The notes under the pieces were generated by a model. It had not been told where the DNA came from, did no database searches, and saw only the letters and a program-made list of their open reading frames with translations. Positions 26,672-44,893 of a stretch of 64,000 nt of DNA are shown here, in pieces. The stretch comes from Escherichia phage WPEC5. The stretch's first letter is position 1, and the number at the start of each line of letters is the position of its first letter. A program made the position numbers and the translations under genes. The stretch is taken from sequence record PV654397.1, one strand, 5' to 3'.

Positions 26672-27820
26672 ATGTTACCTTTTGTTAGAATGTTTGATTA
26701 TGGGAATGAAGCACCTACCAACTCTGGGCGTTTTAAAATATATTCCAGTGATTCTATGTATCTTCATGATACTTATACTGACAAGTTGTATGCATCTTCT
26801 GCGACGAATTGGGGTACTGGTACAGGTGTAGCATCGAGTAAATTTATTCTTTGTGCGGAGAATGTTAAACGAGTTCTATTGGAAGATAACAGTAGTGATT
26901 GTCAATTGTATGAAGAGAAAGGTACTGGAAAAGTTTTTATCACTGGTAACACGAAGGCATTCACTGGTGTAACTGATAGAAAAACTTTGTGGACGGACTG
27001 TACTACGTGGATAACATCAAGTGGTATTAATGTTTCTGATATAAAATACATGAGTAGTTTTTATGATATGAAGGTGAATTTGATAACAAACGATGGTACA
27101 TTGTATTGTTGTGGAGCTAACAATATATCGAACATATCATCATTTGGTGATGGCACAAACATTAATTCTTTTAACACATTCAAAAGAGTAGATACTATAA
27201 CTTCGGTTAAAAAGGCAGTTGGTAACATTTATTTGCGAGAAGATAATACTTTATGGGGTTGTGGTTTTAACTATTACTACCAGTTGGGCACGGGTAATCA
27301 AACTTCTATTACTGGGGTGACGATGATTTCTTCGGATGTTATAGATTTTAATGTAAGTTATCAGAGTACATTTTTTATCAAATCGGATAATAATTTGTAC
27401 GCTTGTGGTAAACAGTTCGGTGCACAATATGGGAACGAATTTGGTACAGGTGGTACTTCCTCTTCTACTGATATACAATATAAAACTCCCACATTATTGA
27501 GTGCAGGTGTTTATAGTTTATATACTTGTGTTGGTAACATGGCATCACATATAGTTAAAGGTGATGAAGTACTTTATGCATCTGGAAGCAACTCGTCTGG
27601 TCAATTAGGTGTTGGTAATAATAATAATCAGTACTCCTATACTCCTTCATATACTTCGTTTAATACCTCTTGTAATTTGGTACGCACCCCATCTGGTTCA
27701 CTTATACTTACTGATACTGGAAAATTATATTATTGTGGCCTTGCAATAGTAGTAATGGGTGGTATTTCTGGACAGAACGTTCTTAATTATACAGAAGTCG
27801 ATATGTCATTTTTGCAGTAA
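26672..27820 (+). CDS. RCC1-like beta-propeller repeat protein, leader family member 1 (382 aa)
   Basis: Leader MLPFVRMFDYGN; repeated blade motifs (GxNxxxQLGxG, e.g. GFNYYYQLGTGNQT, GSNSSGQLGVGNNN); extended -10 TGATATAAT and AGGAG SD. Confidence 0.8.
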   Translation: MLPFVRMFDYGNEAPTNSGRFKIYSSDSMYLHDTYTDKLYASSATNWGTGTGVASSKFILCAENVKRVLLEDNSSDCQLYEEKGTGKVFITGNTKAFTGVTDRKTLWTDCTTWITSSGINVSDIKYMSSFYDMKVNLITNDGTLYCCGANNISNISSFGDGTNINSFNTFKRVDTITSVKKAVGNIYLREDNTLWGCGFNYYYQLGTGNQTSITGVTMISSDVIDFNVSYQSTFFIKSDNNLYACGKQFGAQYGNEFGTGGTSSSTDIQYKTPTLLSAGVYSLYTCVGNMASHIVKGDEVLYASGSNSSGQLGVGNNNNQYSYTPSYTSFNTSCNLVRTPSGSLILTDTGKLYYCGLAIVVMGGISGQNVLNYTEVDMSFLQ

Positions 27821-27828
27821 ATTAATAT

Positions 27829-27854
27829 GCCAGTACTTGATACTGGCTTTTTTG
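27829..27854 (+). terminator. array cassette terminator hairpin
   Basis: GCCAGTACTTGATACTGGC then TTTTTTG; -10 box TATAAT and AAGGAGG SD of next gene follow. Confidence 0.6.
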
Positions 27855-27887
27855 ATTAAATATAGTATAATGAATAAAGGAGGAAAT

Positions 27888-28997
27888 ATGTTACCTTTTG
27901 TAAGAATGGTTAAGTACGGGAATATTGCACCAGTACCGAAAAAAATAAAGAAAGTTATAGCAGGATATGATAATTTATATGTACTATATGGTGATGGTTC
28001 GCTATATGGTTGTGGAATCAATAACTATCAACAGTTAAATATTGATGGAACTGCTACACAAAATAATTGGGTACTAATTACCAATGGTGTTAGTAATGCA
28101 TGGGCTGGTGGATACAATATTTTATATTTGAAAGAAGATAAATTTATAATGCACGGAACTAATGTCTCATTAGGTTTAGGAAATACTACAATTCCATTAG
28201 GTGGAGTAGATGTAACTTCTTCATTCCCAGATATCTCTAATATTAAAATGATATCCATTGGTTTTGATTCAATGCACTATGTTAGTGCTGATGGTACAAC
28301 TGTATATGGAAGAGGTATGAACACAAATGGTTCTGTTGGTTCAGGTAGTACTTACTCACAGAGTACTTTCACTTCAGTACTGAATAATGGAACTAATCAG
28401 GTTATTGATATATTTGGTAACGTTAATAATACAGTGCTTCTAACATCGAATGGTGAGCTTCGAGCATGTGGGACAAGTGCTTATGGTTCTATAGGAAATG
28501 AAACTGGTAAGTGGACATCGTTTGGTTTAAAATTATCTGGCACTAAAATAATGGGTGGTAATGGGTATAGTACGCTTGCATATACAAATTCGGGAATGTA
28601 CCACTCAGGGTGGCAGTTAAATGGGGAACTAGGAAATGGTTTAGATACTAACGTACAGGTATATCCATTTCAATTTAACTCTAAAACGATAGATAGCAAG
28701 ATAGATAAAATTGCCAAATCATCATCTGGGTCATATGTTAACATGTACTCAACAACAGAAGGAAAGATATATACGACAGGTTCGTTTGGTAAAAACGGGT
28801 CAACTACTGCATTGAATTTGTTCACCAATACATTAACACTTATAAATTACAATCCAGATACCGCCTCGTTGTATACGTGCACAAACTTCAGTGTTGTGTA
28901 TGATGGTAATGAAACTATTGCTGTAAGTGGTAGTCCTACATATGTACCAGGGGGCGTTGCCGCTAATAGATGGACTACAATTCCATTACCCAAGTAA
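27888..28997 (+). CDS. RCC1-like repeat protein, leader family member 2 (369 aa)
   Basis: Start set to family leader MLPFVRMVKYGN (track start 27759 runs through terminator and promoter); TATAAT box and AAGGAGG SD. Confidence 0.75.
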   Translation: MLPFVRMVKYGNIAPVPKKIKKVIAGYDNLYVLYGDGSLYGCGINNYQQLNIDGTATQNNWVLITNGVSNAWAGGYNILYLKEDKFIMHGTNVSLGLGNTTIPLGGVDVTSSFPDISNIKMISIGFDSMHYVSADGTTVYGRGMNTNGSVGSGSTYSQSTFTSVLNNGTNQVIDIFGNVNNTVLLTSNGELRACGTSAYGSIGNETGKWTSFGLKLSGTKIMGGNGYSTLAYTNSGMYHSGWQLNGELGNGLDTNVQVYPFQFNSKTIDSKIDKIAKSSSGSYVNMYSTTEGKIYTTGSFGKNGSTTALNLFTNTLTLINYNPDTASLYTCTNFSVVYDGNETIAVSGSPTYVPGGVAANRWTTIPLPK

Positions 28998-29003
28998 TAC
29001 TAT

Positions 29004-43008: not shown

Positions 43009-43014
43009 TATAAT

Positions 43015-43042
43015 GCCAGTACTATGTACTGGCTTTTCTTTT
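43015..43042 (+). terminator. array cassette terminator hairpin
   Basis: GCCAGTACTATGTACTGGC then T-rich tract. Confidence 0.55.
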
Positions 43043-43691
43043 ACATATTATATAATGTGAATGCAGTTACTTTACCAGTTGTTGTTAGTTCATTATAAAG
43101 ATACTCCAAGATTCTCGCACACTCTAAGTATATCTCGATATCATCATGAATAAGTGAGTACTGAAATAGCTGTTCTTCAGATAATTTGTATTGACTTCCT
43201 TTTAATGAATTGAGAATATCTTTCACATCATCAAGTACTGGGTAAAGTACGAAATCTTCATCATATTTTGAAGCAATAAATTCAAATCCACCACCATCAG
43301 TACTAGATATACCAATCAGTACTTTATCAATCAAGTTAATGTTTATATAACGGTTGTGATTTGGGTGAATTGAAATCTCAAACATACGAGTACTGTTACA
43401 ATCAACATCAATATACAAATATACATCGTTGAATTTATAAGTTAAGCAACCGTACTCAAGAAAATCAGAGCAAATAATTGATGAGTTTTTTCTCGTCTCT
43501 GCGTAATGCATCTTGATATTCTTTTCACGCATAAGTAATTCGAACTTTGCACTAAACTTGCCACCAGCAAGATAGTTAGTATTAGGACGTTTGTAACTTG
43601 CAACTGGTCGGTGGGATGATGTAAAGTATTTTTTTGTGAATCGTTTATGTTTAGTGAAATATTCTTGATAGAACTTACTTCTTTTATTCAT
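43041..43691 (-). CDS. hypothetical protein (216 aa), opposite-strand insertion in the array
   Basis: ORF with GAGG SD; N-terminus MNKRSKFYQEYF resembles the small-protein family; no nuclease motif recognised. Confidence 0.5.
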   Translation of the reverse strand: MNKRSKFYQEYFTKHKRFTKKYFTSSHRPVASYKRPNTNYLAGGKFSAKFELLMREKNIKMHYAETRKNSSIICSDFLEYGCLTYKFNDVYLYIDVDCNSTRMFEISIHPNHNRYININLIDKVLIGISSTDGGGFEFIASKYDEDFVLYPVLDDVKDILNSLKGSQYKLSEEQLFQYSLIHDDIEIYLECARILEYLYNELTTTGKVTAFTLYNM

Positions 43692-43768
43692 GAGTACCTC
43701 AATTAAATCGCTGTAAAATTGTACATTATAAAATGATTAAATAAAGTATAACACAAGGAGATTTTATC

Positions 43769-44893
43769 ATGTTACCTTTCGTATTGTTATTTGATTATGG
43801 GAACGAAAAACAAGAAAGTTCTTATGATGTTAGTGTATATGGAAACAATAACTACATTTTAAATAAACAAACTGGAAACCTTTTTGCATCCGGTGCTGCG
43901 GCATTCATGGGTGATAACACAGTTAAGTATTATATTACCCAAATAGAATCAAATGTTCATAGCTGTGAGATAGGTTTCCTATCATCATGGATAATTAAGA
44001 AGGACAAAACTGTTTTCATTTTAGGAAACAAAAGCAGTATAGGATTAACTGGTTCGACAACATCATGGTTCGAAATTACAAATTTATTTTCTGCTGTTCC
44101 TGAAATATGGGACAACCTATTTGAATGTAAAGTTCAATTGGGATATAACTGTATACGTGTTATGACACCACTAGGATCAATCTATGCGATTGGTACAAAC
44201 ACTTATGGTGCATTGGGTACTGGTACTACATCCTCATCAACTTCGTTCGTTAAAAGTGGTGCTGTGGATGCTGTACGCATGGAATCAACAGAACGTTCAG
44301 TGTTCTATCAAAACAGTTATGGACAATGGTTTGGATGTGGTGATAACACATATGGTATACTAGGTCTAGGAACTACCGCTAGTCGTGTAAACTCATACAC
44401 CGCACCAGTATGGACTAATGCAGAAGCTGTTAGCTTCTCTAACCGTGGGATCATATACAGCCTCAATGGTACTCTATACTCATGTGGTGACAAAGTTAAT
44501 GGTCAGCTAGGGGATGGATATACACAAAGCATAGACGCAGCCAGGAGCACACCATACACCATAGGAACCGCATTCCAAATTGGTAAGGCAATAACATCAG
44601 CTACACAAGCATCAGCCAACGTATTCATTGGTAAAGATAATAAGTTCTATGGTACTGGTAGTATTGCTGCTGGTATAAATGGTAGTACTAGTGCTGCATT
44701 AAGTAAAGTTACTGCGTTATCAGCAGCACTACCACCTGACATTACATACAATGATATTATAACATTCAATACAGGGACCGTAACTTTTATTCAAGCAAAA
44801 GGACAACTATATTATGTTGGTAGAAGAACTTACATAGATAATAGTTCAGACGTTACCACACAGTTCAGTGTAATTGGTGGCTTAGATAATTAA
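43769..44893 (+). CDS. RCC1-like repeat protein, divergent leader (374 aa)
   Basis: Leader variant MLPFVLLFDYGN; motifs GTNTYGALGTGTT, GDNTYGILGLGTT, GDKVNGQLGDG; AAGGAG SD. Confidence 0.75.
   Translation: MLPFVLLFDYGNEKQESSYDVSVYGNNNYILNKQTGNLFASGAAAFMGDNTVKYYITQIESNVHSCEIGFLSSWIIKKDKTVFILGNKSSIGLTGSTTSWFEITNLFSAVPEIWDNLFECKVQLGYNCIRVMTPLGSIYAIGTNTYGALGTGTTSSSTSFVKSGAVDAVRMESTERSVFYQNSYGQWFGCGDNTYGILGLGTTASRVNSYTAPVWTNAEAVSFSNRGIIYSLNGTLYSCGDKVNGQLGDGYTQSIDAARSTPYTIGTAFQIGKAITSATQASANVFIGKDNKFYGTGSIAAGINGSTSAALSKVTALSAALPPDITYNDIITFNTGTVTFIQAKGQLYYVGRRTYIDNSSDVTTQFSVIGGLDN

Follow-up and report, generated by a model that had tools for sequence, protein, structure and literature searches.

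Arrays of genes for RCC1-like proteins have been recorded in the Rak2-like jumbo phages (phAPEC6 gp001-010, 121Q_234-248, PBECO4 and Munch_535-550; phrog_4219), and the published accounts searched regard their products as RCC1 paralogs whose role is unknown or lies in DNA condensation. Eleven RCC1-like proteins were described in phAPEC6, with a speculated role in ordering the DNA or the inner body (PMC7247149), and the copies in 121Q and PBECO4 were listed in the report on phage CBB, where GAP32_001 is given as a virion protein (PMC5259590). The virions of W70 and CB7, both Vequintavirinae, also contain RCC1-like proteins. The subject of the present analysis is such an array in Escherichia phage WPEC5, at positions 26672-44893 of a 64,000-nucleotide (nt) stretch of record PV654397.1 (hereafter the window), in which fifteen genes share a 12-residue N-terminal leader, or tag. 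By megablast the window belongs to Asteriusvirus, the group of ~350-kb jumbo coliphages with 121Q, PBECO4 and phAPEC6, the nearest records being fEgEco12, Turkey3, WPEC3, BF17 and vB_Ec-M-J. The array is of the same locus and family as the Rak2-like arrays, as its members match phrog_4219 at E 1e-110 to 1e-40 and have orthologs of up to 100% identity in WPEC3 and fEgEco12.

A first-pass annotation, made from the sequence alone, had stated that no described phage system has an array of this kind. This does not hold, since the array is annotated in the relatives, under the names ‘regulator of chromosome condensation’, ‘DNA condensation protein’ and ‘HERC1’, and is discussed for phAPEC6 (PMC7247149) and for 121Q and PBECO4 (PMC5259590); neither the array nor its virion association is therefore new. 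In the literature searched, including the phAPEC6 and CBB papers, no mention of the shared N-terminal tag was found and its motif strings were absent, and the non-RCC1 bodies, the retention of the tag and the crossover boundaries described below are likewise unreported in the accounts of the Rak2-like arrays searched. The RCC1-array family is not taken up in a 2026 review of jumbo phages. What looks like the new element is a retained, fold-independent N-terminal tag on a family of virion proteins across the Rak2-like phages, which doubles as a recombination linker.

One leader on fifteen divergent proteins

Fifteen intact open reading frames (ORFs) of 245-396 amino acids (aa), fourteen RCC1-like and one polyglycine-rich, lie on the plus strand at the starts proposed in the first-pass annotation, all opening with MLPF[VA][RL][MIL][FV][DK]YGN, and a six-frame scan detected no further copy of the leader motif in the 64-kb window outside these fifteen. 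The conservation of the leader against divergent bodies is borne out by alignment of the fourteen RCC1 paralogs, with a mean identity over 91 pairs of 84.7% in the 12-residue leader and 24.5% in the bodies (range 20-32%). Two of the genes start further upstream in the program-made ORF list (27759 GTG and 30310 ATG), and their true start is likely the leader ATG, which carries a Shine-Dalgarno sequence. The array is broken by one minus-strand ORF of 216 aa (43041-43691). The ratio of nonsynonymous to synonymous substitution between orthologs (dN/dS 0.16-0.55) indicates that the array genes are functional and that the constraint on them is moderately relaxed.

In structure models of two members the leader is the only disordered part. 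The predicted local distance difference test (pLDDT) score is below 50 at residues 1-12 of the RCC1 member and 1-8 of the Gly-rich member, about 66 in the linker that follows the tag, and 88-92 in the bodies. A role of the tag as the closing (‘velcro’) strand of the propeller was considered and rejected because the leader is disordered in both models, and the tag is also present on non-propeller folds. A signal peptide or lipobox was rejected as well, the tag sequence having no hydrophobic core. Two flavours of the tag occur in the window, V-RMFD in eight genes and A-RMVK in six, with a hybrid V-RMVK in the gene at 27888; phAPEC6 has VK-like flavours only and 121Q nearly so. The two flavours could reflect gene conversion or two docking specificities.

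Spread of the leader

Variants of the tag recur in other phages. GAP32_001 starts with MLPFSRIIQYGN, thirteen RCC1 genes of Salmonella phage Munch begin with MIPFxRILxYGN, and the tag reads MLPFPIIS in Yersinia phage fHe-Yen9-04 and MFPIPIISxYGN in Xanthomonas phage XaC1. The RCC1-like structural protein of CB7 (Certrevirus), whose gene directly follows a tail-fibre gene, begins with MIPFAIIGFVGGVTPVPYAIKKL. One genome carries one flavour over all its bodies, as with MIPFxRIL in Munch. The tag is also found on the Gly-rich homologs CBB_144 and Munch_544, on proteins of the GAP32_002/Munch_540 type and on Munch_534. A pattern scan of IMG/VR returned 37 loci, the majority on contigs of 350-378 kb, and the bodies behind the tag in these ORFs comprise RCC1, Kelch, three Laminin_G_3-like types, an RCC1+Kelch fusion, Gly-rich bodies and bodies of unknown fold. 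Every exact pattern match in 121Q lies in two loci (L016 and L017), both with RCC1-type array genes, and CBB_144 and CBB_247 are tagged genes that stand singly outside arrays.

A different shared N-terminal motif, M[LIN]E[LM][LM], was seen in smaller phiTE-like myoviruses of ~150 kb, just upstream of the terminase and portal genes. Its carriers are Gly-rich homologs, a LamG-like homolog of GAP32_002 (locus L009) and a 221-aa protein of unassigned fold (locus L011), and it may be a second, clade-specific tag.

Tagged proteins in virions

Electrospray ionization tandem mass spectrometry of phAPEC6 virions identified 62 proteins, among them gp003, 005, 006, 007, 009 and 010 (PMC7247149). The annotated tagged proteins of this phage are strongly represented in the list (6/8, against 56/543 of the other proteins; Fisher p = 4e-5). 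Three further tagged ORFs of phAPEC6 (L001, MK817115; 2434, 6063 and 7325), including the Gly-rich one, are unannotated and were therefore undetectable in the published virion proteome; gp004 is a wrong-frame ORF within the Gly-rich gene, and the start of gp002 is placed too far upstream. The tagged genes of CBB are CBB_548-554 (all seven), CBB_144 and CBB_247, and seven of these nine (CBB_144, 247, 548, 549, 551, 552 and 553) are among the 55 virion proteins (p = 2e-6), with a sequence coverage of up to 50.7%. GAP32_001 and CB7_37 are virion proteins by mass spectrometry as well.

The peptides in the CBB report also bear on the fate of the tag. LLQYGNK (residues 7-13 of CBB_553) and YANVIVEYATK (residues 10-20 of CBB_548) were recovered from virions, and hence the virion-borne protein retains the tag in its distal half at least; the N-terminal hexapeptides (MLPFPR and similar) were not found in that report, being probably too short. 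No acidic residue or Glu is conserved after the tag among the window members, in which residue 13 is E, I, K or V. The phiKZ cleavage motif is S/A/G-X-E (PMC13282480), and ‘GNE’ in four window members fits it. A cleaved propeptide of the T4 or phiKZ type was rejected, as eleven members have no Glu and the CBB virion peptides contain the tag. The presence of tag residues in virion peptides and the lack of a conserved Glu argue against a T4-style clipped capsid-targeting sequence (CTS). The leader had been proposed to be a virion-targeting or processing signal; the virion proteomes of the relatives agree with targeting, and the processing part is not supported.

Conservation as DNA and as protein

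Codons 1-4 are identical in 42/42 Asteriusvirus leaders, two TTT/TTC changes apart, and synonymous variation within these leaders is found only at Tyr10, Gly11 and Asn12. Outside Asteriusvirus the codons turn over (Pro3 as CCA, CCG or CCT; Gly11 as all four; Arg6 as AGG, AGA or CGT), and M-[LI]-P-F...Y-G-N persists across genera while the DNA diverges. Within the window, four genes that have no cassette of promoter and ribosome-binding site (RBS) upstream still have the leader. The leader is conserved at both levels, as a recombining DNA cassette and through an amino-acid constraint across genera. The first-pass annotation had noted that a repeated DNA cassette with no protein-level constraint might fully account for the leader. 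Such an account fails because synonymous codons turn over across genera, cassette-less genes keep the leader and tagged genes occur singly.

Shuffling of the array

Comparison with related genomes reveals variation both in copy number (15 in the window, 15 in fEgEco12, at least 15 in Turkey3, 16 in WPEC3 and 12 in phAPEC6) and in content, despite array flanks that are 94-99% identical to the same relatives. Close orthologs of the genes at 37186 and 40711 are present only in Turkey3 and of that at 38317 only in fEgEco12, the sole match of the gene at 36001 is one of 80% in phAPEC6, and the gene at 39480 has no ortholog in the four relatives compared. The megablast blocks shared with three relatives begin in the cassette or 1-13 nt before the ATG and stop where the 36-nt leader of the next gene has its 3' edge, 34-47 nt into that gene. 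The flavours V-RMFD and A-RMVK swap between orthologous bodies, so that the gene at 30325 and its 121Q ortholog combine near-identical bodies with different tags. The position of the block edges and the exchange of flavours therefore indicate that leader and cassette act as a homology block for the swapping of whole bodies.

Promoters, terminators and expression

The TTAAATATAGTATAATGAATAAAGGAG cassette is present in nine copies, against none expected by chance, all within the array and 6-7 nt before an ATG, and each cassette is preceded by a GCCAGTAC..GTACTGGC hairpin with a T-run, of which there are eleven (Table 1). Terminator-like sites are in excess in the region (26 against 7.9 expected) and no enrichment is seen for sigma-70-like sites (78 against 95.5 expected). 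The exact TATAAATA motif is depleted in the window (three sites against 12.8 ± 3.7 expected). All three sites (26637, 59179-59186 and 60421-60428) lie ~25-35 nt upstream of a start codon, in front of array gene 1 and of two ORFs orthologous to ‘virion structural proteins’ of fEgEco12, one of which has the hairpin, T-run and TATAAATATAG layout of the array. In CBB, structural genes are preceded by ATAAATA, and a gp55-like sigma factor is reported (PMC5259590). The distribution of TATAAATA is consistent with a T4-like late promoter in WPEC5, and late co-expression of the array with the structural genes is a reasonable inference. On the basis of the cassette and hairpin positions, the array is predicted to be transcribed as eight single-gene units, a four-gene unit (36001-39480), a two-gene unit (40711-41872) and the last gene alone.

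Folds of the bodies

The RCC1-like propeller assignment of the first-pass annotation is backed by profiles, by comparison with solved structures and by one model. All fourteen large members match the Pfam RCC1-like domain PF25390, at E 1e-8 to 8e-31 and below its 150-bit cut-off, and eleven also pass the gathering threshold of RCC1 or RCC1_2 (PF00415/PF13540); the remaining three (37186, 40711 and 41872) are sub-threshold for these two families, yet match phrog_4219 at E 1e-43 to 1e-46. A phmmer search of PDB sequences returned UVR8 (4e-20) and RCC1 (6e-9). The AlphaFold 2 model of the one RCC1 member modelled (38317-39465), built on an alignment mainly of the window's own paralogs (a word-indexed homolog search with an RCC1 member gave ten hits), has a pLDDT of 87.6 and a predicted template-modelling (TM) score of 0.87, and in Foldseek it matches the seven-bladed UVR8 (TM 0.76-0.79, E 4e-23) and also RPGR, HERC2 and RCC1. 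Two window members match phrog_11922 ‘tail protein’, and RCC1 propellers form the distal parts of annotated tail fibres, for example in Littlefix and in PollyC, of which PollyC also has a T7 fibre N-terminal domain.

Pfam gave no match for the Gly-rich member (33982-34719), its sequence relatives carry PF21722, and its model has a pLDDT of 92.1. Its body resembles the tail-fibre adhesins Pam3 gp24 and Bxb1 gp33, and the array has a body fold in common with proven receptor-binding proteins. Sequence searches gave no solved phage homolog for the Gly-rich protein or for CB7_37. The window proteins are of 24-43 kDa, near-neutral (isoelectric point, pI, 5.1-9.2; K+R about equal to D+E) and rich in Gly, Ser, Thr, Asn and Tyr, and the fourteen RCC1 members (pI 5.1-8.2) have no basic charge. 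The body types and the near-neutral composition favour external binding modules, putatively so located, over DNA-condensing or internal proteins, because of the Pam3-gp24-like layout, the RCC1 propellers on tail fibres, the LamG and Kelch bodies behind the tag and the neutral charge.

Possible functions

The preferred reading, given about an even chance as a whole, is that the array encodes a library of probably external adhesin modules, expressed late and shuffled fast, which a retained N-terminal tag docks on the virion; the ‘virion tag’ part is rated above this and the ‘external adhesin’ part below it. The first-pass annotation had offered both adhesin and anti-defence modules docking on a common partner; the adhesin version is the one preferred here, and nothing in the analysis spoke for anti-defence. 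The product of each gene would have a compact body that binds a ligand, in most cases a seven-bladed RCC1-like propeller and, once, a tail-fibre-type polyglycine-rich head; in front of it would stand the flexible 12-residue tag (MLPFxRMxxYGN), followed by a short linker that contains Pro. The tag would be a docking peptide that stays on the mature protein and plugs any fold into one acceptor site on the particle, so that the bodies would be displayed on the exterior, each an alternative adhesin, with the hair-like fibres or fibre network of these phages as a possible site. Transcription would be late, from T4-type late-promoter cassettes and together with the structural genes, and the repeated homology block of hairpin, promoter, RBS and 36-nt leader would be the place where bodies are gained, lost and swapped, giving every isolate its own repertoire. 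In this scheme a shared acceptor, a place on the outside, a role as adhesins and late expression are the putative elements. A more general version, which is tentative, sees in the tag a plug for a display scaffold on Rak2-like virions (e.g. the hair-like fibres) in the manner of a cellulosome, with leader recombination reshuffling the adhesins and M[LIN]E[LM][LM] doing the same job for the Gly-rich and LamG bodies of the phiTE-like phages.

Several points weigh against the adhesin library. The position of these proteins in the particle and their acceptor come by inference, the virion evidence is all from relatives and none from WPEC5, and the phAPEC6 peptide counts are low (1-4) in a proteome that includes likely contaminant enzymes. 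At twelve residues the anchor falls far short of those known from receptor-binding proteins, and a monomeric propeller of 40 kDa does not make a fibre. Nor is the presence of hair-like fibres neatly matched by that of RCC1 genes, as CBB has hairs and no RCC1 gene (PMC5259590). The majority of the array cassettes read TTAAATA and not the exact TATAAATA. Codons 1-4 are invariant as DNA in Asteriusvirus and flavours are exchanged between orthologous bodies, and part of the within-genome conservation is therefore due to gene conversion and not to selection.

The main rival, considered unlikely, is that the proteins are internal to the head or belong to an inner body, from which they are possibly ejected, with the tag as a CTS for recruitment to the prohead core and with bodies that act in the cell (e.g. 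against defence) or organise DNA. A short tag on diverse virion proteins in a hyperplastic locus does match the logic of the T4 CTS and internal proteins (PMC3012670), phAPEC6 has an inner body for which its authors proposed the RCC1 proteins (PMC7247149), and virion mass spectrometry is blind to inside and outside. However, the tag is kept in the CBB virion peptides and a conserved Glu or other cleavage residue is lacking, the bodies differ in size, charge and composition from small basic internal proteins, their folds are lectin-, propeller- and fibre-tip-like, and CB7_37 adjoins a tail-fibre gene. Still less probable is that the tagged proteins are soluble, made late and in abundance, that they work inside the infected cell or once it has lysed (for example as anti-defence factors, decoys or modifiers of the host surface), and that they merely co-purify with the particles. 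Such an origin would fit the low peptide counts in phAPEC6, the topoisomerase subunit in the same list and the absence of any structural density assigned to these proteins (PMC7247149), but it has to contend with tagged proteins in the independent virion proteomes of phAPEC6, GAP32, CBB and CB7, with the coverage reached in CBB, and with the RCC1-like proteins, of unchecked tag status, in the W70 virion.

A comparably small chance is given to a leader kept mainly for reasons of DNA or RNA, as a block for recombination or gene conversion or as a translation-initiation region, with no docking role. The leader's presence in four genes lacking the upstream cassette, the persistence of its amino acids across genera through synonymous changes, its occurrence on the dispersed genes CBB_144 and CBB_247 and the strong enrichment of tagged proteins in virions all speak against this, even though the near-invariant codons 1-4, the homology blocks that stop at the 3' edge of the leader, the flavours that move between orthologous bodies and an architecture like that of the stem-loop motifs of T4-like phages (PMC4122927) are what it would predict. 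That the proteins regulate the condensation of chromosomes or DNA, as the database names say, is hardly credible. It has in its favour only the name carried over from eukaryotic RCC1 and the speculation on phAPEC6 (PMC7247149); the match is to a generic RCC1-like propeller scaffold with UVR8 as the best structural match, the proteins have no basic charge, and the same tag stands on lectin-like and Kelch bodies. The ‘RCC1’ name of these phage proteins is an annotation transfer.

Relation to known systems and significance

The internal proteins of T4 resemble the array in that a short N-terminal tag is the sole conserved part of diverse, fast-changing virion proteins (PMC3012670). There is no sequence resemblance, though, and the tag is retained here, whereas that of T4 is cleaved by the prohead protease at a conserved Glu; the bodies here are large neutral binding domains and those of T4 are small and basic. 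Modular receptor-binding proteins (Pam3 gp24, S16 gp38-type adhesins and tailspike adaptor domains) likewise combine an N-terminal attachment with an exchangeable head. Pam3 gp24 consists of an N-terminal attachment element, a TNF-like domain and a Gly-rich receptor-binding domain (PMC9942802), and the Gly-rich member of the window has the same TNF-like and polyglycine-rich layout with the tag in the position of the attachment element. Unlike in these proteins, the anchor is of ~12 residues and not a folded domain, and a single tag is shared by at least five folds and by the 12-16 paralogs of a genome.

The promoter early stem-loop (PeSL) promoter/terminator motifs mediate modular shuffling in the hyperplastic regions of T4-like phages (Comeau et al. 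2014, PMC4122927). As in the array, repeated intergenic motifs of terminator and promoter bound whole-gene insertions, deletions and swaps between close relatives. The promoter of the TTAAATATAG cassettes resembles the late TATAAATA type, in contrast to the early type of PeSL, and the homology block extends 36 nt into the coding sequence, the crossover site doubling as a protein tag. As a functional analogy only, the cohesin-dockerin system of cellulosomes also joins many bodies to a common scaffold by one small docking module; homology is absent, the tag is a peptide where cellulosomes use a domain, and for these phages a scaffold bearing repeated acceptor sites is hypothetical.

If the tag is a docking handle, a function would be at hand for the ‘DNA condensation proteins’ that take up ~5% of these 350-kb genomes, and the tagged proteins would be candidates for the unassigned hairs and decorations seen by electron microscopy. 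Jumbo phages could in this way vary their adhesion with the core tail fibres untouched, and the tag would offer a tiny natural peptide for loading foreign proteins on a large virion, for phage display and therapeutic engineering. The leader would also be an instance of a coding sequence with a second use as a linker for recombination.

Features of the array and its neighbourhood

Table 1. Genes, cassettes and hairpins of the tagged array in the window, with the ORFs that carry the second motif
Feature	Position	Strand	Remarks
Member 1, RCC1-like propeller	26672-27820	+	382 aa; leader MLPFVRMFDYGN; ortholog 100% in WPEC3, 92% in fEgEco12
Member 2, RCC1-like	27888-28997	+	369 aa; leader MLPFVRMVKYGN
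Member 3, RCC1-like	29069-30250	+	393 aa
Member 4, RCC1-like	30325-31434	+	369 aa; 121Q ortholog with near-identical body, other leader flavour
Member 5, RCC1-like	31505-32647	+	380 aa; leader MLPFARMVKYGN
Member 6, RCC1-like	32719-33909	+	396 aa
Member 7, Gly-rich	33982-34719	+	245 aa; tag, beta-sandwich, polyglycine-rich domain; phrog_4474
Member 8, RCC1-like	34792-35922	+	376 aa
Member 9, RCC1-like	36001-37176	+	391 aa; heads predicted four-gene unit without internal cassette
Member 10, divergent RCC1-like	37186-38304	+	372 aa; leader kept, upstream cassette lacking
Member 11, RCC1-like	38317-39465	+	382 aa; modelled: residues 1-12 disordered, body a seven-bladed propeller
Member 12, RCC1-like	39480-40640	+	386 aa; close ortholog in 0 of four relatives compared
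Member 13, RCC1-like	40711-41856	+	381 aa
Member 14, divergent RCC1-like	41872-43008	+	378 aa
Member 15, RCC1-like	43769-44893	+	374 aa; variant leader MLPFVLLFDYGN
Promoter/RBS cassette before member 1	26638-26664	+	exact T4-late-type TATAAATA at 26637-26644
Cassette TTAAATATAGTATAATGAATAAAGGAG	27856-27882, 29036-29062, 31472-31498, 32686-32712, 33949-33975, 34759-34785, 35968-35994, 40678-40704	+
Terminator hairpin GCCAGTAC..GTACTGGC, then T-run	27829-27847, 29002-29024, 30253-30282, 31438-31463, 32654-32672, 33913-33939, 34725-34747, 35936-35954, 40647-40665, 43015-43033, 44898-44924	+
M[LIN]E[LM][LM] ORFs	L009: 2459-3109, 10001-10693; L011: 8134-8799, 9176, 10001-10744		phiTE-like phages

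Two ORFs inside the Gly-rich gene, of 84 aa (34131-34385, minus strand) and 102 aa (34370-34678, plus strand), are by-products of its GGN-rich repeats; gp004 of the phAPEC6 annotation corresponds to one of the two. Back-to-back with the array, ~20 small tandem paralogs of 59-78 aa occupy 21965-26565 on the minus strand, many of them beginning with M..EYY/EFY and ending in a hydrophobic LxLIxxx tail; a mention by Hua et al. of ‘>30 very similar genes’ in 121Q (PMC5646251) may refer to them. In each of the two arrays a single minus-strand ORF of ~216-219 aa, for which Pfam gave no match, breaks the series (23907-24566 and 43041-43691). The latter belongs to phrog_34359 and has the same position in fEgEco12, Turkey3 and WPEC3; paralogy of the two was rejected, as there is no similarity between them. 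Immediately downstream of the tagged array, seven tandem minus-strand genes (44929-47368), conserved in the relatives, encode hydrophobic, probably membrane, proteins of 104-123 aa, and similar runs of ‘putative membrane protein’ genes lie beside the tagged array of CBB. The denV gene, which the first-pass annotation had placed near the array, is indeed present (52160-52597, minus strand), although at a distance of 7.3 kb. Two overlapping minus-strand ORFs at 50477-51860 (243 and 230 aa) each have a weak match to Peptidase_C58 (YopT-like) and may be one split or frameshifted gene.

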